64,000 nucleotides of DNA, taken from Octopus vulgaris (lineage: Eukaryota). Below the pieces are notes generated by a model. The model was not told where the DNA came from. It searched no databases and saw only the letters and a program-made list of their open reading frames with translations. A program made the position numbers and the translations under genes. Shown here piece after piece: positions 204-60,560 of the stretch; positions within the stretch are counted from its first letter, which is position 1, and each line of letters begins with the position of its first letter. Where the stretch lies: the NCBI GenBank assembly GCA_951406725.2, contig OX597816.1:18042001-18106000 (forward strand). Direction: 5' to 3'.

Positions 204-251
<48 letters not shown>

Positions 252-473
252 TCAATATAGGGTGGCAAAAAAAAATGTTGTAGAATTCTTTTGCCACCAG
301 CGGCCTAGTGGGAAAAAATTAAATAGTCATAAACCATTTTTAAGTTCAACATCACAATCAAGGAACGGCCATAATAGGCCATTCACCCACTAGAAATAAC
401 AGCCAAAAGCTTTAACCGCAAAATAACGTCAATTCCGTAAACTAGGAGAAAATTGAAAAACATTTACCCTGTA

Positions 474-580
474 ATTTCTTAGACGATGCACCGTTTCATC
501 TTCTGTTTAATGGAAAACTAACCTGATTAAATTAAATCAAGCCAATCTACCATAGGCCCTTAGATTCATCAGTAAGAAAT
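474..580 (-). ncRNA. Type I hammerhead ribozyme, array copy 1
   Basis: Minus strand reads ATTTCTTA-CTGATGA-ATCT...AGAT-GAAA-CG gtgcat CG-TC-TAAGAAAT: 8-bp stem I, intact core, GUC cleavage triplet. Confidence 0.85.
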
Positions 581-965
581 AGCCAAGCCGGAACAGATAT
601 TTTTCACGAGGCATTCTCGTTGCTACCTCGTCAATATCTGACCTAAAATTTTCAAATCGTCGCACTCGCGCCAAATTTATCGGCAGCAAATAAATATAAG
701 CCGCCGATTCCATTACGGAATTAACCAGAAAATTCATAATTAATCAATATAGGGTGCCAAAAAAAAATTTTGTAGAATTCTTTTGCTACCAGCGGCCTAG
801 TGGGAAAAAATTAAATAGTCATAAACCATTTTTAAGTTCAACATCACAATCAAGGAAAGGCCATAATAGGCCATTCACCCACTAGAAATAACAGCCAAAA
901 GCTTTAACCGCAAAATAACGTCAATTCCGTAAACTAGGAGAAAATTGAAAAACATTTACCCTGTA

Positions 966-1072
966 ATTTCTTAGACGATGCACCGTTTCATCTTCTGTTT
1001 AATGGAAAACTAACCTGATTAAATTAAATCAAGCCAATCTACCATAGGCCCTTAGATTCATCAGTAAGAAAT
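966..1072 (-). ncRNA. Type I hammerhead ribozyme, array copy 2
   Basis: Same motif as 474-580. Confidence 0.85.
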
Positions 1073-1458
1073 AGCCAAGCCGGAACAGATATTTTTCACG
1101 AGGCATTCTCGTTGCTACCTCGTCAATATCTGACCTAAAATTTTCAAATCGTCGCACTCGCGCCAAATTTATCGGCAGCAAATAAATATAAGCCGCCGAT
1201 TCCATTACGGAATTAACCAGAAAATTCATAATTAATCAATATAGGGTGGCAAAAAAAAAATTTTGTAGAATTCTTTTGCCACCAGCGGCCTAGTGGGAAA
1301 AAATTAAATAGTCATAAACCATTTTTAAGTTCAACATCACAATCAAGGAACGGCCATAATAGGCCATTCACCCACTAGAAATAACAGCCAAAAGCTTTAA
1401 CCGCAAAATAACGTCAATTCCGTAAACCAGGAGAAAATTGAAAAACATTTACCCTGTA

Positions 1459-1565
1459 ATTTCTTAGACGATGCACCGTTTCATCTTCTGTTTAATGGAA
1501 AACTAACCTGATTAAATTAAATCAAGCCAATCTACCATAGGCCCTTAGATTCATCAGTAAGAAAT
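1459..1565 (-). ncRNA. Type I hammerhead ribozyme, array copy 3
   Basis: Same motif as 474-580. Confidence 0.85.
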
Positions 1566-1950
1566 AGCCAAGCCGGAACAGATATTTTTCACGAGGCATT
1601 CTCGTTGCTACCTCGTCAATATCTGACCTAAAATTTTCAAATCGTCGCACTCGCGCCAAATTTATCGGCAGCAAATAAATATAAGCCGCCGATTCCATTA
1701 CGGAATTAACCAGAAAATTCATAATTAATCAATATAGGGTGGCAAAAAAAAATTTTGTAGAATTCTTTTGCCACCAGCGGCCTAGTGGGAAAAAATTAAA
1801 TAGTCATAAACCATTTTTAAGTTCAACATCACAATCAAGGAACGGCCATAATAGGCCATTCACCCACTAGAAATAACAGCCAAAAGCTTTAACCGCAAAA
1901 TAACGTCAATTCCGTAAACCAGGAGAAAATTGAAAAACATTTACCCTGTA

Positions 1951-2057
1951 ATTTCTTAGACGATGCACCGTTTCATCTTCTGTTTAATGGAAAACTAACC
2001 TGATTAAATTAAATCAAGCCAATCTACCATAGGCCCTTAGATTCATCAGTAAGAAAT
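1951..2057 (-). ncRNA. Type I hammerhead ribozyme, array copy 4
   Basis: Same motif as 474-580. Confidence 0.85.
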
Positions 2058-2756
2058 AGCCAAGCCGGAACAGATATTTTTCACGAGGCATTCTCGTTGC
2101 TACCTCGTCAATATCTGACCTAAAATTTTCAAATCGTCGCACTCGCGCCAAATTTATCGGCAGCAAATAAATATAAGCCGCCGATTCCATTACGGAATTA
2201 ACCAGAAAATTCATAATTAATCAATATAGGGTGGCAAAAAAAAATTTTGTAGAATTCTTTGCCACCAGCGGCCTAGTGGGAAAAAATTAAATAGTCATAA
2301 ACCATTTTTAAGTTCAACATCAGGTTAGTTTTCCATTAAACAGAAGATGAAACGGTGCATCGTCTAAGAAATTACAGGGTAAATGTCTTTCAATTTTCTC
2401 CTAGTTTACGGAATTGACGTTATTTTGCGGTTAAAGCTTTTGGCTGTTATTTCTAGTGGGTGAATGGCCTATTATGGCCGTTCCTTGATTGTGATGTTGA
2501 ACTTAAAAATGGTTTATGACTATTTAATTTTTTCCCACTAGGCCGCTGGTGGCAAAAGAATTCTACAAAATTTTTTTTGCCACCCTATATTGATTAATTA
2601 TGAATTTTCTGGTTAATTCCGTAATGGAATCGGCGGCTTATATTTATTTGCTGCCGATAAATTTGGCGCGAGTGCGACGATTTGAAAATTTTAGGTCAGA
2701 TATTGACGAGGTAGCAACGAGAATGCCTCGTGAAAAATATCTGTTCCGGCTTGGCT

Positions 2757-2863
2757 ATTTCTTACTGATGAATCTAAGGGCCTATGGTAGATTGGCTTGA
2801 TTTAATTTAATCAGGTTAGTTTTCCATTAAACAGAAGATGAAACGGTGCATCGTCTAAGAAAT
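2757..2863 (+). ncRNA. Type I hammerhead ribozyme, array copy 5 (predicted cleavage after C2855)
   Basis: Stem I ATTTCTTA (2757-2764) pairs with TAAGAAAT (2856-2863). Core CTGATGA at 2765-2771. Long stem II closed by ATCT/AGAT. GAAA at 2840-2843, stem III ACG/CGT, GTC at 2853-2855. Confidence 0.87.
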
Positions 2864-3248
2864 TACAGGGTAAATGTTTTTCAATTTTCTCCTGGTTTAC
2901 GGAATTGACGTTATTTTGCGGTTAAAGCTTTTGGCTGTTATTTCTAGTGGGTGAATGGCCTATTATGGCCGTTCCTTGATTGTGATGTTGAACTTAAAAA
3001 TGGTTTATGACTATTTAATTTTTTCCCACTAGGCCGCTGGTGGCAAAAGAATTCTACAAAATTTTTTTTTGCCACCCTATATTGATTAATTATGAATTTT
3101 CTGGTTAATTCCGTAATGGAATCGGCGGCTTATATTTATTTGCTGCCGATAAATTTGGCGCGAGTGCGACGATTTGAAAATTTTAGGTCAGATATTGACG
3201 AGGTAGCAACGAGAATGCCTCGTGAAAAATATCTGTTCCGGCTTGGCT

Positions 3249-3355
3249 ATTTCTTACTGATGAATCTAAGGGCCTATGGTAGATTGGCTTGATTTAATTT
3301 AATCAGGTTAGTTTTCCATTAAACAGAAGATGAAACGGTGCATCGTCTAAGAAAT
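3249..3355 (+). ncRNA. Type I hammerhead ribozyme, array copy 6 (cleavage after 3347)
   Basis: Same motif as 2757-2863. Confidence 0.85.
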
Positions 3356-3741
3356 TACAGGGTAAATGTTTTTCAATTTTCTCCTAGTTTACGGAATTGA
3401 CGTTATTTTGCGGTTAAAGCTTTTGGCTGTTATTTCTAGTGGGTGAATGGCCTATTATGGCCGTTCCTTGATTGTGATGTTGAACTTAAAAATGGTTTAT
3501 GACTATTTAATTTTAACCCACTAGGCCGCTGGTGGCAAAAGAATTCTACAAAATTTTTTTTTTGCCACCCTATATTGATTAATTATGAATTTTCTGGTTA
3601 ATTCTGTAATGGAATCGGCGGCTTATATTTATTTGCTGCCGATAAATTTGGCGCGAGTGCGACGATTTGAAAATTTTAGGTCAGATATTGACGAGGTAGC
3701 AACGAGAATGCCTCGTGAAAAATATCTGTTCCGGCTTGGCT

Positions 3742-3848
3742 ATTTCTTACTGATGAATCTAAGGGCCTATGGTAGATTGGCTTGATTTAATTTAATCAGG
3801 TTAGTTTTCCATTAAACAGAAGATGAAACGGTGCATCGTCGAAGAAAT
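3742..3848 (+). ncRNA. Type I hammerhead ribozyme, array copy 7 (T>G at 3841 breaks the first stem I pair)
   Basis: Same motif but reads GTC-GAAGAAAT instead of GTC-TAAGAAAT. Confidence 0.75.
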
Positions 3849-4235
3849 TACAGGGTAAATGTTTTTCAATTTTCTCCTAGTTTACGGAATTGACGTTATT
3901 TTGCGGTTAAAGCTTTTGGCTGTTATTTCTAGTGGGTGAATGGCCTATTATGGCCGTTCCTTGATTGTGATGTTGAACTTAAAAATGGTTTATGACTATT
4001 TAATTTTTTCCCACTAGGCCGCTGGTGGCAAAAGAATTCTACAAAATTTTTTTTTTTGCCACCCTATATTGATTAATTATGAATTTTCTGGTTAATTCCG
4101 TAATGGAATCGGCGGCTTATATTTATTTGCTGCCGATAAATTTGGCGCGAGTGCGACGATTTGAAAATTTTAGGTCAGATATTGACGAGGTAGCAACGAA
4201 AATGCCTCGTGAAAAATATCTGTTCCGGCTTGGCT

Positions 4236-4342
4236 ATTTCTTACTGATGAATCTAAGGGCCTATGGTAGATTGGCTTGATTTAATTTAATCAGGTTAGTT
4301 TTCCATTAAACAGAAGATGAAACGGTGCATCGTCTAAGAAAT
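4236..4342 (+). ncRNA. Type I hammerhead ribozyme, array copy 8 (cleavage after 4334)
   Basis: Same motif as 2757-2863. Confidence 0.85.
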
Positions 4343-4729
4343 TACAGGGTAAATGTTTTTCAATTTTCTCCTAGTTTACGGAATTGACGTTATTTTGCGG
4401 TTAAAGCTTTTGGCTGTTATTTCTAGTGGGTGAATGGCCTATTATGGCCGTTCCTTGATTGTGATGTTGAACTTAAAAATGGTTTATGACTATTTAATTT
4501 TTTCCCACTAGGCCGCTGGTGGCAAAAGAATTCTACAAAATTTTTCTTTTTGCCACCCTATATTGATTAATTATGAATTTTCTGGTTAATTCCGTAATGG
4601 AATCGGCGGCTTATATTTATTTGCTGCCGATAAATTTGGCGCGAGTGCGACGATTTGAAAATTTTAGGTCAGATATTGACGAGGTAGCAACGAGAATGCC
4701 TCGTGAAAAATATCTGTTCCGGCTTGGCT

Positions 4730-4836
4730 ATTTCTTACTGATGAATCTAAGGGCCTATGGTAGATTGGCTTGATTTAATTTAATCAGGTTAGTTTTCCAT
4801 TAAACAGAAGATGAAACGGTGCATCGTCTAAGAAAT
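4730..4836 (+). ncRNA. Type I hammerhead ribozyme, array copy 9 (cleavage after 4828)
   Basis: Same motif as 2757-2863. Confidence 0.85.
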
Positions 4837-4959
4837 TACAGGGTAAATGTTTTTCAATTTTCTCCTAGTTTACGGAATTGACGTTATTTTGCGGTTAAAG
4901 CTTTTGGCTGTTATTTCTAGTGGGTGAATGGCCTATTATGGCCGTTCCTTGATTGTGAT

Positions 4960-5036
<77 letters not shown>

Positions 5037-5990: not shown

Positions 5991-6366
5991 AAGATAAATT
6001 AATATATGTACATACATACCTGCATGGATCATGGCTTCTGGTACTGAAATGAAGACAGAAAGCCAAGAATGACCCGTTTTTTTTGCCTGTCCTTCTAATT
6101 GTTGTTTCTGTTGTCCACCTTTCGGTCGTCTATCTGTCCGAACGTTTTAATGCCCTCTTTTGCATTTTTGTTCCATAAATGCTTAGTATTCAATTTTATT
6201 TTTCCAATTATGAATACTTAATAATTGAATGCTGTGAGTTAAAACCAGTTTTTTCTCTCAAAATTTGTCTATTTATTTGTGAACTCGCATATGAAATATT
6301 TTTTTTGTTTTAATCTTGGTATTATATCGCTTAGATTTACTGCCAGACGAATTTTAGCCAGCACTG

Positions 6367-11673: not shown

Positions 11674-12282
11674 AGGGCGGCAAGCTGACAGAAACATTAG
11701 CACGCCGGGCGAAATGCTGAGCAGTATTTCGTCTGACGCTACGTTCTGAGTTCAAATTCCGCCGAGGTCGACTTGCCTTTCATCTTTTCGGGGTCGATAA
11801 ATTAAGTACCAGTTACGCACTGGGGTCGGTGTAATCGATTTAATACCTATGTTTATCCTTGTTTGTCCTCTCTGTGTTTAGCCCCTTGTGGGTAGTAAAG
11901 AAATAGGTTTTTCGTCTGCCGCTACGTTCTGAGTTCAAATTGCACCAAGGTTTACTTTACCTTTCATCCTTCGAGATCGATAAATAAAGTACAAGTTACG
12001 CACTGGGATCGATGCAATCGACTTATTCCCTTTGTCTATCGTTGTTTGTTCCCTCTATGGTTAGCCCCTTGTGGTCAATAAAAAAATAAGAAACGTTAGG
12101 CCGGGCAAAATCCTTAGCGGTTTTTGGTCTGTCGTTACGTTTAATTTAAAATTCCGCCGAGGTCGATTTTGTATTTCATTCTTTCAGGATCGATTGAACA
12201 AGTACCAGTTATGACCTGAGGTCGATGTAATCGACTTAATCCTCCTGCTTGTTCCCTCTATATTTAGCCCACTGTGGGCAAT
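11674..12282 (+). mobile_element. SINE family A (tRNA-derived, Meta/Sauria-like central motif), internally multimerised
   Basis: GGCGGCGAGCTGGCAGAA...GAGTTCAAATTCCGCCGAGGTCGAC...CCTTTCATCCTTTCGGGGTCGATAAA..AAGTACCAG, core repeated three times. Diverged TSD taaatatttytgttytg. Confidence 0.85.
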
Positions 12283-24090: not shown

Positions 24091-24670
24091 AGGGTGGCGA
24101 GCTGACAGAAACGTTGGCACGCCAGGCGAAATCCTTAGTGGTATTTCCTCTGTCTTTACGTTCTGAGTTCGAATTCTGCCGAGATCGACTTTGCCTTTCA
24201 TCGTTTCGGGGCCGATTAAATAAGTACCAGTTACGCACTAGGGTCGATATGATCGACTCAATCCGTTTGTCTGTCCTTGTTTGTCCCTTCTTTGTTTAAC
24301 CCCTTGTGGGTAGTAAAAAGAAATACGTATTTCGTCTGCCGTTACATTCTGAGTTCAAATTCCGCCGAGGTCGAGTTTGCCTTTCATCCTTTCGGGGTCG
24401 ATTAAATAAGTACCAGTTACGCACTGGGGTCGATATAATCGACTTAATCCGTTTGTCTGCCCTTGTTTGTCCTCTCTGTGTATAGCCCCTTGTGGGTAGT
24501 AAAGAAATAGGTATTTCTTCTGTTTATTACGTTCTGAGTTCAAATTTCGTCGAGGTCAAATTTGCCTTTCATTCTTTCGGGGTCGATAAATTAAGCACCT
24601 GTTGTGCACGATCTAATGGACTGGGCCCCTCCCCAAAAATTTCGGGCCTTGTGTCTAGAGTAGAAAAGAT
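24091..24670 (+). mobile_element. SINE family A, internally triplicated
   Basis: Three copies of the core. TSD taatatatgacRcg at 24076-24089 and 24671-24684. Confidence 0.88.
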
Positions 24671-34607: not shown

Positions 34608-35803
34608 GTGCATCGTTCTTTGTAAAACATCTCAACTCTTAAAGTTCATGATTTTTTCCAGATATAGCTCGAACTATATACAGCTATGTATAGTCCGCCT
34701 TTGTTTCTAAAGACGTGATTTACTGCAGATTTAGCTGCTATTTCTAGTAGGTCATGCAATTAAATAGAGGTTCCGACACAGTGCATCGTTCTTCGTAAAA
34801 CATCTCAACTCTAAAAGTTTATGCTTTTTCCAGATATATTTCTTTATTGCCCACAAGGAGCTAAACGTAGAGGGGACAAACAAGGACAGACAGAGGGATT
34901 GAGTCGATTACATCGACCCCAGTGCGAAACTGGTACTTTATCTATCGATCCCGAAAGGATGAAAGGCAAAGTCGACCTCGGAGGAATTTGAACTCAGAAC
35001 GTAACGACAGACGAAATACCACTAAGTATTTCGCCCGGCGCGCTACATGTCTGCCAGCTCGCCGCCTTATGCTTTTTCCAGATCCAGCTCGAACTATATA
35101 CAGCTATGTATAGTCCGCCTTTGTTTCTAAAGATGTGATTTACTGCAGATTTAGCTGCTATTTCTAGTAGGTCATGCAATTAAATAGAGGTTCCAACACA
35201 GTGCATCGTTCTTCGTAAAACATCTCAACTCTAAAAGTTCATGCTTTTCCCAGATATATTTCTTTATTGCCCACAGTGGGCTACACACAGAGGGGACAAA
35301 CAAGGTCAGACAAACGGATTAAGTCGATTACATCGACCCTAGTACGAAAGTGGCACTTTATTTATCGATCCCGAAAGGATGAAAAGCAAATTCGACCTCG
35401 GCGGAATTTGAACTCAGAACGTAACGACAGACGAAATACCTATTTCTTTATTACCCACAAGGGGCTAAACAGAGAGGGGACAAACAAGGACAGACATAGG
35501 TATTAAGTCGATTACATCGACCCCAGTGCTTAACTGGTACTTAATTTATCGACCCCGAAACGATGAAAGGCAAAGTCGACCTCGGCGGAATTTGAACTCA
35601 CAACGTAACGCAAACGAAATACCGCTAAGCATTTCGCCCGGTGTGCTAACGTTTCTGCCAGCTCGCTGCCTTATGCTTTTTCCTGATATAGCTCGAACTA
35701 TATACAGCTATGTATAGTCCACCTTTGTTTCTAAAGATGTGATTTACTGCAGATTTAGCTGCTATTTCTAGTAGGTCATGCAATTAAATAGAGGTTCCGA
35801 CAC
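34608..35803. repeat. Three tandem 173-bp units; units 2 and 3 carry family A SINEs (minus) at the same site
   Basis: Units start at 34608, 34781 and 35201. SINEs at about 34838-35068 and 35258-35672 are flanked by ATGCTTTTYCCWGAT. Confidence 0.88.
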
Positions 35804-40454: not shown

Positions 40455-43400
40455 CTGACAGATCCCGTCTTTTTCCCTTTCTTTTCGTTTCCTTCTCCGT
40501 ATTTTATTCTCATTATTTCGAACTAATACAGACACAGTAAGCCTTGAAGAAAGGTAGAGGAGGAAAGGAAAAAAAAAAAAAAATGTCCGGAGATAAAACT
40601 ATCAACAAAAAAAAATACAGACGAATATAGATCTGCTAGTCTTAAGAAGCGGCGCTATGAGCAATGCTTACATGTAGTGAACCCTAAACTGACAGATCCA
40701 TCTCCTAATATAAGAATGGATGCTCGTCATGCTTCAAGGTCAACAAATCAAACAATAAACCGCATTGGTCATTGCGCGGATTACAAAAGACCACGTACCC
40801 GAAAATTGAACCAAATCCTGATTGAAAAATCAGTTACTGGATCAAATCTTCCCAACACACAGGAGCTGGACGAACCCCACAACCGGAATATTCCAACAGA
40901 TGGCCATCCATGCTCATCACCAAATAATCAAAAGAAAAAGAAGGAAAAATGGTCTAGGGAAGATAATAAAGAAGTTCTTGAGGCCTTCTACCATGCCATA
41001 TATTTCCCCACAGATAAGTCTAGCACTGTACAAGCATACTTAAACTGGAGACAGAAACACCCTGAAGTAAGACCCTACATAGACAGTAACAAGCTTGCCA
41101 ATGTTAGAAGAAACATTATAAAAAAGAAATTACTGACTGAAGTAGAGATTGATCAGGTTAGACAAGCAATATCGGATAAAATGAACGAAGCTGCAGCTAG
41201 AGAAGATAATACAGAGGAAATGATTATAGACCAGCCCAGGGTGGATAAAAACGAAGAGAGGATTGAAAGAGTTAGTATAAGTGATAGGCAAAGTGAAATA
41301 CGCCCTGAACCAATCATAAACACTAAGACAGATGAGCATCAAATAGATAAAGAAAGTCACACAAATATTGACCCAACAGAACTACATGAGCTAAAAAATC
41401 AAATCATGATTGAATGGCTGAAAATTAAAGAAACCAGCATGGATGAGCGTGATACACTTCCTAAAATCCGCAACTCTAACCAAAACATGAAAATAATTGG
41501 TAAAATCCGGCTTGCACTTAAGGATATAATTTCAGTTAATGATGTTGATATCACAAACCTCAACCACCTATACTATGCATCCGCGAAAATCTCAACGATC
41601 TTATGTGGTGTAAAGATTAGAAAACGGCAACAGTCCCACAAAAAGCCTTCTTGGCAAGAGCGTCTGCAACAACAAATTAAAATATTTAGATCTGACATTG
41701 AATATTTGAAAAACCTTAAGGCTCACAAAACTACCAAACCTACAAAAACCCAAAAATTACTGAAAAAATACAATATGAAAACTATACTTGATATTGATGC
41801 CACCATAGAAACCATCAAACAAAAGGTATCTGCCAAAGCTGCCCGCATAGCGAGGTATGAAAAGCGTGTTAGATTTTTCAAGGACAACAACATGTTCAAA
41901 AATAACACCAAGAATTTTTACAGGAAGATAGGAAAAACAGCGTTTACTGCAGGGTCTGTACCATCAAAAGAAGAAGTGCAGAGATTTTGGAATAAAATCT
42001 GGGCAGAAGAAAAAACACACAACGAAAAGGCCCCCTGGATTGACAGAATATCTACAGAACTGGACCCCTTAGAAGAGCAAAAGTGGGAGGGTGTCAAGGT
42101 AGAAGATATAAGATCTGCTCTAAGGAGGTCAAGCAAATGGAAGTCTCCAGGAAAGGATAAAATTCCTAACTTCTGGCTGAATGCCTTCCCAGAGAGCCAT
42201 GAACTGCTAACAGAACTGTACAATGATGTTTTGCAACACCCTAGTAGGATGCCTCCTTGGCTAGTTAATGGGTTAACATTCCTGCTTCCAAAAAGTGAAG
42301 AAACAAATGAACCAAAAAACTATAGACCCATAACCTGCTTAACAACTATGTACAAAACACTAACATCTGTCCTGACGGAATATACCTATAGTTTTTTAAC
42401 AGACAGCAGCATATTCCCTAATGAACAGAAAGGATGTAAACGTGGATCCTACGGCTGTAAAGACCAACTACTCATCAATAAGATGATCTTAGAAGATTGT
42501 CACAAACGACACAAAAACTTATCAATAGCCTGGATAGACTATAAAAAGGCTTTTGATAGCCTACCACATAGCTGGATTAGGAAATGCCTTGAAATGTATA
42601 AGATAGCACCAACTCTGCGAAACTTTTTGACTGTAAGTATGAGATCATGGAGAACCACACTAACTCTGAACAGTGACAGTGAATCCCTAAATGCTGGTGA
42701 TGTAAAAATTTCGTGTGGCATTTTCCAGGGTGACTCACTGTCACCACTCCTCTTTTGTTTATCCTTAATACCTCTCTCAAAGCTGCTCAATGACGCGCAG
42801 TACGGGTATAAAATGTTTGATAAAAATATAAATCATCTCGTTTACATGGATGATTTAAAGCTTTTTGCAAAAAATGATCAACAACTCAAGGGCTTACTAG
42901 CGATAGTCAAACAATTCAGTGACGACATCAGAATGCAATTCGGCCTCGATAAATGTGCAAAGGCTACCTTTATCAAAGGAAAAATGACAGAAACATCTAA
43001 AGTTAACCTTGACCAACAGAATGTCATAAAAGAACTAGACCCAGCGGAGAGCTACAGGTACCTAGGGGTAATTGAAGGGAACGGAATAAGGCATTCAGAG
43101 ATGAAGGAAAGGATCAGGAGAGAATGCTATCGAAGAGTGAGAGCAATACTCAAGACAGAGCTGAATGCAAGAAACAGGATCGAAGCAATCAATGCATTAG
43201 CTATACCAGTCGTGACTTACAGTTTCAATATTGTTAACTGGTCAATTACTGAAATATGTCAGCTCGACAGAAAAATAAGGAAACTGTTGACAATGCATAG
43301 AATGCACCACCCTAAGGCAGATACAGAACGACTCTATCTGCCAAGAAAAGAGGGAGGCCGTGGTCTTTTGCAACTGGCAATAACAATGAAGATTGCTACA

Positions 43401-44620
43401 ATTGGCCTAGACACCTACCTGAAAAACTCTGAGGACTGGATGTTAAAACTTGTCTCAAAACATGAAAACAAGAAAGCATCATACTCAGTCACAAAACAGG
43501 CAAAGGAATATCTAAGTGAATTCCGAATACAACCAATTTCGGAATTAGAGATAGATATACAAGAAACAAGCACAGAAAAAGCTAGGCGCATGAAAACCCG
43601 TGCCAAAACTGCGGCCTTAGATATTCTGAATAATAAATGGCAAGAAAAACCTCTCTATGGCAAATACCCAAAGAGAGCGAATAATGCAGATATCGACAAA
43701 GCCCTGACCCATCAATGGCTAATGGCCTCTGGCTTAAAATCTGAAACAGAGGGGTTTATCATAGCAGCTCAAGATCAATGCCTACCAACAAGAAACTACC
43801 AGGCCAACATATTAAAGATCAGAAGCAGTCCAACGTGTCGTGTATGCAAGCAACAAAATGAAACCATTGACCATGTGGTCTCCAAGTGCAGTCTTCTAGC
43901 GCCTACAGAGTATCTCAACAGGCACGATAGAGCTGCACAATATATTCACTGGGTAATCTGTAAAAACCTGGATTTGCCCCATGAAAAAAACTGGTGGGAA
44001 CACAAACCACCTCCAGTGCTTGAAAATGACCACATCTCACTCCTCTGGAACTTCACCATTCAAACTGACAGGAAGATAGATGCAAATAGGCCAGACATCA
44101 TATTGAAAGACTTCAAACAAAGAACATGCCTCCTCATTGATATGACTGTCCCAATCGATATAAACGTATCTGTCAAGACCTACCAAAAACTGAGCAAATA
44201 TAAAGATCTTGAAATAGAAATCAGCAAAATGTGGAAGCTGAAGACTAAAACAATACCTGTTGTCATAGGTGCCCTGGGAATGATAGCAAAAGGGGCTGAT
44301 AGCTACCTAACTCAGATACCAGGAAACCCAAAAATGGCAGAAGTTCAAAAGATAGTGCTCATGGGAACTGCTCATATCCTACGCAAAATACTCTCTATGT
44401 AATCTCAAGGTTTAAAACAAACATAATTTTCGGTTTAAAAAAAAAAAAAAAAAAACTTTTTTTTTTTTTTAGACATTCATTAGTACAACATCCCCACCCC
44501 CCAAATATATGGCACACTAGGCATAACAACAACATGAACTTCCAACCCTGTTGTCTCTTGAGGTCTCTGGGTGAGACTTGGAGCCAACTTGTACAAATAT
44601 AAAGCAAAAGTCAAACATAG
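40455..44620 (+). mobile_element. Apparently full-length R4/Dong-clade non-LTR retrotransposon inserted in (TAA)n
   Basis: Single long RT-RLE ORF. The 5' flank is aataacaataataa and the 3' end runs into aataataataataat at 44621. Dong elements are known to target TAA repeats. Confidence 0.88.
40716..44402 (+). CDS. Reverse transcriptase / CCHC zinc knuckle / restriction-like endonuclease polyprotein (1228 aa from the first ATG; frame open from 40677)
   Basis: Motifs WKSPGKD, NYRPITCL, IDYKKAFDS, GIFQGDSLSP, YMDD, YRYLG, CRVC..ETIDHVVSKC, RHD, NRPDI..IDMTVP and KYKDL. No stops or frameshifts. Confidence 0.95.
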   Translation: MDARHASRSTNQTINRIGHCADYKRPRTRKLNQILIEKSVTGSNLPNTQELDEPHNRNIPTDGHPCSSPNNQKKKKEKWSREDNKEVLEAFYHAIYFPTDKSSTVQAYLNWRQKHPEVRPYIDSNKLANVRRNIIKKKLLTEVEIDQVRQAISDKMNEAAAREDNTEEMIIDQPRVDKNEERIERVSISDRQSEIRPEPIINTKTDEHQIDKESHTNIDPTELHELKNQIMIEWLKIKETSMDERDTLPKIRNSNQNMKIIGKIRLALKDIISVNDVDITNLNHLYYASAKISTILCGVKIRKRQQSHKKPSWQERLQQQIKIFRSDIEYLKNLKAHKTTKPTKTQKLLKKYNMKTILDIDATIETIKQKVSAKAARIARYEKRVRFFKDNNMFKNNTKNFYRKIGKTAFTAGSVPSKEEVQRFWNKIWAEEKTHNEKAPWIDRISTELDPLEEQKWEGVKVEDIRSALRRSSKWKSPGKDKIPNFWLNAFPESHELLTELYNDVLQHPSRMPPWLVNGLTFLLPKSEETNEPKNYRPITCLTTMYKTLTSVLTEYTYSFLTDSSIFPNEQKGCKRGSYGCKDQLLINKMILEDCHKRHKNLSIAWIDYKKAFDSLPHSWIRKCLEMYKIAPTLRNFLTVSMRSWRTTLTLNSDSESLNAGDVKISCGIFQGDSLSPLLFCLSLIPLSKLLNDAQYGYKMFDKNINHLVYMDDLKLFAKNDQQLKGLLAIVKQFSDDIRMQFGLDKCAKATFIKGKMTETSKVNLDQQNVIKELDPAESYRYLGVIEGNGIRHSEMKERIRRECYRRVRAILKTELNARNRIEAINALAIPVVTYSFNIVNWSITEICQLDRKIRKLLTMHRMHHPKADTERLYLPRKEGGRGLLQLAITMKIATIGLDTYLKNSEDWMLKLVSKHENKKASYSVTKQAKEYLSEFRIQPISELEIDIQETSTEKARRMKTRAKTAALDILNNKWQEKPLYGKYPKRANNADIDKALTHQWLMASGLKSETEGFIIAAQDQCLPTRNYQANILKIRSSPTCRVCKQQNETIDHVVSKCSLLAPTEYLNRHDRAAQYIHWVICKNLDLPHEKNWWEHKPPPVLENDHISLLWNFTIQTDRKIDANRPDIILKDFKQRTCLLIDMTVPIDINVSVKTYQKLSKYKDLEIEISKMWKLKTKTIPVVIGALGMIAKGADSYLTQIPGNPKMAEVQKIVLMGTAHILRKILSM

Positions 44621-59384: not shown

Positions 59385-60560
59385 AAATTTCTTCCACAAG
59401 GGTAATAATTTGGGGGGGAGAGAGACTAGTCGATTATATCGACCCAAGTGTTTCACTGGTACTTATTTTATCGACCCCAAAACAATGAAAGCAAAGTTGA
59501 CCTCGGCGGCATTTGAAGGTTCTGAATTCAAATTCCGCCAAGATCGACTTTGCCTTTCATCCTTTCGGGATCGATTAAGTACCAGTGAAACACTGGGGTC
59601 GAGTCGATGTAATCGACTAATTCTCTCTCCCAAAATTTCAGGACTTGTACATATAGTACAAGGATTAACAATAATAATAAAAAAATAATCCTTTCCACTA
59701 TAGGCACAAGGCCTGAAATTTGGGGGAGGAGGCTAGTCGATCACATCAACCCCAGTGTTTCACTGGTACTTAATTTATCGACACCGAAAGGAGGAAATGC
59801 AAAGTCGACCTCAGCGGAATATGAATTCAGAACGTGAAGACGGACGAAACAACGCTAAGTTTTTCATCCGACGTGATAACGGTTCTGCTATCTCACCGCC
59901 TTAATATTACTGTTGTAAGGCGATGGGCTGGCAGAATCGTTAGCTCATTGTGCAAAATGCTTTTGCTTTCTGCGTTCAAATTCTGCCGAGGTCGACTTTG
60001 CCTTTCATCCTTTCGAAGTCGAGAAATTAAATACCAGTGAAAAAATTATCGTCTAGTTCCCTCCCCACAAATTTGAGGCCCTTTTACTCTAGTATTAAAG
60101 GATCATTATTATCATTATTATTAAGAGGAGCAGGCTGCATCGTGTGCGCGTCTTATATAATGTCTAAATTCAGATAAAATTCAAGCTTTACGTGTTCCAA
60201 GGTCAGATTCCACCGAGGTCGACTTTTCCTTTCATCCTTTCTGAGTCGATAAATTAAGTACCATTCGAACACTGGAATCGATGTAATCGACTAGTTCTCT
60301 CCCCACAAATTTGAGGCCCTCTGCCTCCAGTAGTAGAGAATCATTATTATAATTATTATTAAGAGTTGTTGGCTGAATCGTGATCGCGTCTTATACAATG
60401 CCTAAAGTCAGATAAAATTCAAGCGTTACGTGTTCCGAATTCAAAGTCCACCGACGTCGACTCTGCCTTTGGTACATTCGACGTCGATAAAATAATTACC
60501 AGTACGGCACTGGAGTCGATGTAATCTACTTACACTTCCTATCAAAATTGATGACATTGT
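59385..60560. mobile_element. Cluster of SINE family A copies, including a tandem duplication of about 238 bp (60053-60530)
   Basis: Multiple cores in both orientations. ctagttcyctccccacaaatttgaggccc repeats at 60053 and 60291. Confidence 0.8.

Follow-up and report, generated by a model that had tools for sequence, protein, structure and literature searches.

Hammerhead retrozyme arrays in the octopus genome were probably inserted ready-made by Penelope-type priming from a circular monomer

Introduction

How do retrozymes, tandem repeats that carry a hammerhead ribozyme in each non-coding unit, move through animal genomes? Their movement has so far been a hypothesis in which circular RNA is copied by the enzyme of a non-long-terminal-repeat (non-LTR) element, with Penelope-like elements (PLEs) as the favourite; earlier support for a PLE role, in the papers considered, consists of a shared ribozyme type, co-occurrence and similarity to PLE pseudo-long terminal repeats (pLTRs). 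The question is raised anew by a 64,000-nucleotide (nt) stretch of the Octopus vulgaris genome (assembly GCA_951406725.2, contig OX597816.1, forward-strand positions 18,042,001 to 18,106,000), hereafter the window, which holds a ribozyme-bearing array at 247-4960. An earlier note on this DNA had described the array as retrozyme-like and guessed that a PLE-like reverse transcriptase (RT) mobilizes it. Here we show that the family is young enough for its insertion ends and junctions to be read, exposing the two-start-site signature of PLEs at base resolution. Its arrays were probably inserted ready-made by PLE-type priming, probably from one circular monomer.

Results

An inverted array between (TA)n tracts

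The array consists of two arms pointing away from each other (tail-out) between (TA)n tracts. The left arm (247-2322, minus strand) comprises 4.2 units with a period of 492, and the right arm (2319-4960, plus strand) 5.4 units with a period of 494, both at 99% matches by Tandem Repeats Finder. Counting unit positions from the hammerhead cleavage site, the left arm runs from unit position 128 at its 5' end to 235 at its 3' end (window 247), which we term the E2 end; the right arm runs from unit position 447 to 132 (window 4960), the E1 end. Both arms are 5'-truncated and meet head to head at 2319-2322, in a 4-nt overlap with microhomology ATCA. The ~105 nt between E1 and E2, the 'tail', therefore stand at the outer end of one arm only (247-350, minus strand). 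The left target flank (148-246) is (TATC)n followed by a (TA)n microsatellite. On the right, a single additional G at 4961 separates the arm from another (TA)n microsatellite (4962-5017), within which a target-site duplication is unreadable.

The tandem unit is close to the 493 bp first given for it but varies from 491 to 494 bp, owing to a T tract. GC content is ~0.36. No stop-free frame of at least 150 codons occurs within 247-4960, marking the array as non-coding, and it holds no RT or GIY-YIG reading frame. The earlier note treated this as one local array; it is instead an inverted two-arm insertion with fixed ends and one of many copies, appearing as L070 among the loci surveyed below.

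A type I hammerhead with an extended stem II

The ribozyme has the parts originally described. In the type I hammerhead at 2757-2863 (plus strand), an 8-bp stem I (2757-2764 with 2856-2863) leads into CUGAUGA (2765-2771), an extended stem II region of 68 nt (2772-2839: 4 bp, an internal loop and ~19 bp), GAAA (2840-2843) and a palindromic stem III (2844-2853), followed by a GUC triplet with cleavage expected after C2855. Further plus-strand copies lie at 3249-3355, 3742-3848, 4236-4342 and 4730-4836, with cleavage sites after C3347, C3840, C4334 and C4828. Minus-strand copies lie at 1951-2057, 1459-1565, 966-1072 and 474-580, with sites after window positions 1959, 1467, 974 and 482. The CUGAUGA motifs start at 2765, 3257, 3750, 4244 and 4738 on the plus strand and at 2049, 1557, 1064 and 572 on the minus strand. 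The reported count of nine complete cores, five plus and four minus, is correct. Stem I is intact in eight of nine, a U-to-G at 3841 disrupting its first pair in the copy at 3742-3848. There is also a tenth, truncated hammerhead at 2319-2372 (plus strand), whose 3' half, with the cleavage C at 2364, stands without a CUGAUGA half.

Rfam, which the earlier note had named as a way to find the ribozyme, reported no hammerhead at the gathering threshold, nor any at E ≤ 10 in a scan of 2300-3400. Weak matches to RalA, mir-5728 and others scored far under their gathering scores and were discarded. The long stem II is the likely explanation for the missing match, and would hide whole hammerhead families from Rfam.

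Conservation of the fold was assessed in a helix alignment of 27 distinct sequences. Across its cells 93.0% were paired, compared with 87.6% after shuffling (reached in 0 of 500 shuffles), and 76 double-sided changes stood against 32.8 in shuffles (0 of 500), as the ribozyme reading anticipates; slid controls were only 23-45% paired. Compensatory changes occur in stem I, proximal and distal stem II and stem III, across subfamilies. This covariation shows apparent selection for a working ribozyme along the lineage. Contigs from public sequencing data, aligned at a likeness of at least 80% (40 rows shown, 44 hidden), have core changes only at 2769 and 2855 among the 40 rows shown. We take these to be hammerhead positions N7 and H17, which are freely variable. 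A signal of purifying selection on the core among young copies (1 of 2,469 calls versus 178 of 86,439) was too weak to use.

A young family dispersed through the genome

Searching the 2.8-Gb assembly of 227 contigs with the exact two-part core pattern returned 906 matches (451 forward, 455 reverse) and none for the reversed pattern, so the core pattern is not due to chance. The array thus has many dispersed counterparts. A variant core pattern gave 179 matches (control 0), mostly in subfamilies whose units measure 470-479 bp and share ~72-77% identity with that of the window, a slight underestimate because the alignment slips around the core. In a search with the unit itself, 40 of 922 candidates were scored, yielding 272 matches; among the 150 of these listed, identity was 97-100%. 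Minority calls within loci numbered 129 of 81,319.

An older family, 63-68% similar to that of the window and with a shorter stem II, has 2,414 candidates; the 40 of these that were scored gave 81 matches that are 85-96% identical excluding the query's own locus, and most end at two positions ~92 nt apart. Its members at L116, L118, L135 and L138 keep both end signals described below. Either a gain or a loss of the long stem II during the history of the lineage may account for the difference. Tandem arrangement is common to the older family and to the full-length subfamilies of 470-495 bp. This is a young dispersed family, not a single satellite block, and the non-LTR retrozyme classification holds: a structurally conserved type I hammerhead occurs once in each non-coding tandem unit, and every helix shows compensatory changes.

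Two further groups surfaced during these searches. Loci L124-L126, L128 and L134 contain a separate hammerhead family with a short stem II and a palindromic CUGACGUCAG stem III; L128 has two copies ~330 nt apart and the L126 copy runs into (TA)n. This is probably a second retrozyme family. A third, hammerhead-like group (L117, L119, L123, L130, L133, L136 and L137) has CUGAAGA and a CACUGCAGUG stem III; the search pattern behind it produced 43 matches overall, compared with 18 for controls.

Two fixed outer ends and scattered inner ends

We mapped insertion anatomy at all 40 loci readable from the unit-search listing. They are spread over many contigs and, being the best full-unit matches, over-represent long arms, which biases arm lengths upward. 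(TA)n lies on both flanks in 38 of 40. Thirty-four are tail-out two-arm inserts and none is head-out. Among these 34, one arm always terminates at E2 (unit positions 231-243) and the other at E1 (126-137) in 31, the three exceptions ending at 102, 112 and 365; at no locus do both arms share the same outer end. E1 and E2 lie ~131 and ~238 nt downstream of the cleavage site, and the six single-orientation loci also end at one or the other. Inner 5' ends are scattered across the unit, and of 32 simple junctions 20 show overlap, of up to 11 nt, the other extreme being 17 added bases. The general layout is therefore (TA)n, reverse arm, forward arm, (TA)n, with outer ends fixed and inner ends variable. 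A second set of 50 further loci, mostly from other subfamilies, follows the same pattern: of 23 loci with ribozymes on both strands, 19 show E1 together with E2 (four lacked TA on a flank within 330 nt), and one-strand loci stop at one of these two ends in 25 of 27 cases.

Both ends fall directly 3' of a hairpin and a related motif, roughly CCUWRAUUG. The E1 signal, a hairpin then a CCUUGAUUG-type motif, is present in every unit and coincides with the arm end at 4926-4960 (plus strand); the E2 signal, a hairpin then a CCUAUAUUG-type motif, lies at 247-297 (minus strand). We infer that these mark a first and a second start of reverse transcription. The motif is identical at E1 and E2 in the 474-bp subfamily, and both hairpins show compensatory changes between subfamilies.

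A few ends depart from this scheme or illustrate its extremes. Short stubs exist: L109 (3558-3770) holds, within one (TA)n tract, a 53-nt retrozyme stub ending at E1 and, beside it, a short inverted piece of a different element. Two off-rule ends at unit positions 111-112 (L041 2720-3570 and L066 2741-2789) coincide with a CCUAUUAU loop, and a coding PLE discussed below has this loop ahead of its E2 end; the hint is weak, and in the 474-bp subfamily the loop is different. In the window the right arm ends where the left arm begins, suggesting L1-style twin priming on one linear transcript, which we rejected as a general rule because inner ends spread over the unit. E2 arms starting at 128-131 numbered 3 of 34 versus ~0.5 expected, a post hoc hint of stalling at E1.

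One haplotype per locus points to a single template

We next asked what was copied. Of 26 loci with at least two typed units, 24 carry one haplotype (2,000 shuffles: mean 2.5, maximum 7), which indicates that arrays were not assembled from mixed pools of monomers. Eight variants are fixed in one locus only among the sampled loci, and seven of these, at five loci, occur in every unit of both arms. Such variants imply a monomer bottleneck, most simply a circle. Variants confined to single units (108) far outnumber those partly shared (14). A cleaved linear monomer would limit arms to at most 131 or 238 nt, yet 66 of 73 arms cross the cleavage site; nor do 5' ends pile up there, 4 of 65 lying within 10 nt compared with 2.8 expected. 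Public contigs of four runs contain the tandem junction, which is identical to what a circle junction would give, and one contig runs from about E1 into (TA)n. We also considered adenosine-to-inosine editing as the source of unit variants and dismissed it: sense-strand A>G (13) and T>C (14) changes are balanced, and the window's variant at unit position 39 is G>A from consensus.

PLE-type ends and a co-resident PLE

The ends match what is described for PLEs. Frangieh 2024 (PMC11167929) shows that both strands of AT-rich DNA are cut and extended by a purified PLE protein, which begins copying at two sites inside the RNA; the interval between them is the tail, a feature described there as unique to PLEs. 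Craig 2021 (10.1101/2021.04.23.441226) and Arkhipova 2013 (PMC3846280) describe inverted 5'-truncated PLE copies with a 30-40-bp tail at one end, the former adding a (TA)n bias. One E1 and one E2 end per insert is this two-start-site tail signature, and with 31 of 34 two-arm loci showing it and 38 of 40 loci in (TA)n, the insertion ends directly support the earlier guess of a PLE-like RT.

The genome also contains a young PLE with many open 781-codon frames encoding an RT, a CxxxxCxxC linker and GIY-YIG. Judged by sequence, it would be Neptune/Nematis-type by the published definition (CX2-5CxxC linker, C-terminal GIY-YIG). At 16 loci (L091-L106) this 781-amino-acid (aa) PLE in most cases stops within (TA)n, at two sites separated by 35-40 nt, and its two inverted inserts each have one of each end. 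A 479-codon frame that matches nothing in Pfam lies upstream, and a minimal hammerhead-like motif precedes its ends (in L102 at about 6160-6200); read by eye, this motif appears to have U3-A8 instead of C3-G8. A protein search of the genome with the 781-aa PLE returned only close copies of the same family. Because it has no detectable sequence in common with the retrozyme and its end motifs differ, it is a candidate partner only. The one strong unit match among L071-L110 is the 53-nt stub noted above (L073/L109, one locus) and was set aside as not partner sequence.

Other features of the window

The window also holds an apparently intact non-LTR retrotransposon, a 1,284-codon open frame at 40548-44402 (plus strand) with RVT_1 and a weak zf-RVT match; it is not a PLE and has no link to the array. 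Short tandem copies (183-238 bp) at 11727-12088, 24141-24603, 35257-35623 and 59986-60530 look like one related interspersed repeat resembling a short interspersed nuclear element, and 34653-35440 contains a 420-bp duplication.

Discussion

We consider it likely that this is a young non-LTR retrozyme family mobilized in trans by an endonuclease-bearing PLE, with copying of a circular monomer. Its two components differ in strength: retrozyme identity with PLE-type integration is well supported, and we hold it with high confidence; granted that, a circular single-monomer template is the reading that the variant data favour on balance. Arrays would be transcribed, and their hammerheads, probably pairing as dimers by way of the palindromic stem III, would cleave the multimer into ~492-nt monomers that are then circularized. 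A PLE protein with RT and GIY-YIG would cut both strands of a (TA)n tract, and reverse transcription would be primed from each DNA end at E1 (~+131) and E2 (~+238), each just 3' of a hairpin. Each RT would circle the same monomer for 0.1-11 turns, and the two complementary DNAs (cDNAs) would be joined head to head via microhomology or a few added bases. Some long arms were lengthened afterwards by local duplication.

Several observations weigh against this account. Two of the five covariation measures do not exceed shuffles (194/500 and 499/500), the 27 aligned sequences are related to one another, and the letters of the core and stem III were preset by the search pattern, making core invariance in the alignment circular. 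In the circular monomer, folding predictions place the hammerhead ~6 kcal/mol above the optimum, with stems I and II present ~5% and stem III ~0% of the time; the predicted optimum of 2730-2875 is not a hammerhead either. Fourteen locus-site variants are only partly shared, some with a period of 2-4 (L045, L047), and the window is a mosaic at unit position 39, with A in seven units and the consensus G in three. On the enzyme side, no PLE resembling the unit in sequence was found among 40 GIY-YIG loci (for the 781-aa PLE, even with a word size of 7), and the PLE ends compared lacked the shared end motif, ~20 further GIY-YIG loci lying outside that comparison. At ~105 nt the retrozyme tail is roughly three times as long as the 30-40-nt tails described for PLEs, and Frangieh 2024 (PMC11167929) reports that in vitro an anole PLE prefers unprocessed RNA and does not depend on ribozyme cleavage.

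Some of these points have possible explanations. Given the predicted cost of ~6 kcal/mol in the circular monomer, a single-copy 2740-2880 transcript may be poor at self-cleavage. The stem III palindrome has a predicted self-duplex of -17.5 kcal/mol, and Cervera 2020 (PMC7229834) reports that cleavage of axolotl retrozymes, among them one whose helix III loop is palindromic, is much more efficient in dimeric form. It is therefore plausible on these models that multimers are cut as dimers while circles are protected. The periodic patterns in L045 and L047 mark later local duplication. The order of alleles at position 39 fits neither one circle nor one linear multimer; like the scattered reversions to another common allele in L035 and L032, it could possibly come from conversion, template switching or polishing.

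The closest rival shares the PLE-driven insertion but has the enzyme copy a linear multimer that was never cleaved, produced by read-through of a donor array much as PLEs give tandem transcripts, with arms lengthened and homogenized by local unequal exchange and circles as by-products. We regard it as unlikely, though it keeps some weight because unprocessed RNA was the main in vitro substrate in Frangieh. Li et al. 2026 propose local amplification after insertion, L045 and L047 show that local duplication occurs, and the monomer hammerhead is predicted to fold poorly. A mutation in a donor unit, however, would reach one unit rather than all three to six units of both arms, as at five loci; the excess of single-unit over partly shared variants is as expected if most units were made at insertion, and helix covariation argues for selection on a working ribozyme.

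The remaining rivals dispense with a self-propagating RNA lineage or with the insertion itself. That the units are detached pLTRs of an autonomous PLE, and the loci truncated insertions of a coding element, seems very improbable: the insertion grammar is that of PLE ends, and our comparison took in 40 GIY-YIG loci out of thousands of candidates, but arms repeat the unit up to 11 turns without coding sequence, only 3 of 90 retrozyme-containing stretches have a tblastn match to PLE protein, the unit has diverged into the tandem subfamilies and older family described above, and its canonical ribozyme with a long stem II is unlike the minimal PLE type. Helitron-type repeats, too, can be tandem, insert into microsatellites and combine variable 5' ends with 3' ends fixed after a hairpin, which brings in a DNA-level element with a passenger ribozyme: a Helitron-like rolling-circle tandem repeat, or a satellite that recombination between (TA)n tracts has dispersed. 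The two different fixed ends on opposite arms, the lack of a CTRR-type end at mapped loci, the strand-specific RNA structure with G-U pairs and compensation, and the identical insertion grammar of a coding PLE in the same genome make it extremely improbable. An assembly artefact from fold-back or collapsed reads has a negligible chance. Polishing could account for the mosaic reversions to the family consensus in the window and L035, but 34 independent loci with different junction points share the same two asymmetric outer ends, several carry locus-private variants, and public contigs contain both the tandem junction and the passage from about E1 into (TA)n.

Returning to the PLE-driven, circle-templated reading, a bolder form of it can be put forward only tentatively: each array would be the one-step product of two RTs of a probably dimeric PLE protein, circling one ribozyme-made RNA circle from two hairpin-marked starts, with the enzyme recruited by structure alone and without sequence common to any active PLE. 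If true, these loci preserve, in an animal genome, the direct traces of rolling-circle retrotransposition from circular RNA. The family supplies a test system in which the RNA (~492 nt), its predicted starts (+131 and +238), the target, (TA)n, and an intact candidate enzyme encoded by this genome are available together, making the identity of the partner and the choice between circle and multimer testable with the existing in vitro assay.

How does this family compare with known systems? In the literature covered, with most subscription papers and the repeat databases outside the search, we found no description of a cephalopod retrozyme or of retrozyme insertion ends. It resembles the metazoan non-LTR retrozymes of coral, mussel and axolotl (Cervera and de la Pena 2020, PMC7229834) in that each non-coding tandem unit carries a single canonical type I hammerhead, GC is below 45%, the helix III loop is palindromic and PLEs co-exist with it. 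It differs in its unit of ~492 nt rather than ~170-400 and in its 68-nt stem II region with no Rfam match. Cleavage and circles were demonstrated there, whereas here they are predicted from sequence; circles were proposed there as templates and PLEs named as a strong candidate partner only, and the terms 'target site', 'inverted' and 'microsatellite' are absent from the main text. Li, Clavereau and Pollet (2026 preprint, 10.64898/2026.07.22.740005) likewise propose a PLE partnership, treating vertebrate retrozymes as PLE derivatives, and their consensus lengths of 51-972 bp include this unit. Their case rests on co-occurrence and pLTR similarity and phylogeny, mainly in vertebrates, and ours on insertion ends; they suggest local tandem amplification, whereas our arrays look made at insertion, and we found no PLE with a similar pLTR among the GIY-YIG loci compared. 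Their sample includes no mollusc, and their text lacks 'tail', 'junction' and 'target site'; it reports cleavage in one of nine constructs, showing that predicted retrozymes can be inactive.

The closest likeness in insertion is to endonuclease-bearing PLEs, which, as described in Craig 2021, Arkhipova 2013 and Frangieh 2024, share the inverted 5'-truncated copy, the tail at one end only, (TA)n or AT-rich targets and two internal RT starts downstream of the ribozyme cut site. Unlike them, the retrozyme has no reading frame, its tail is ~105 nt versus 30-40, and its arms are multimers of one short unit. The co-resident 781-aa PLE is similarly young and targets (TA)n, with two 3' ends and one of each in inverted inserts; it differs in its tail of 35-40 nt, its other end motifs and its lack of sequence similarity to the unit, and two-arm inserts make up 2 of 16 of its loci, compared with 34 of 40 for the retrozyme. 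Plant LTR retrozymes have LTRs with type III hammerheads and a 4-bp target duplication, whereas the octopus element has type I topology and tandem units, and no LTR layout. It is a new family of a known kind, a non-LTR retrozyme, set apart by its long stem II and long tail.

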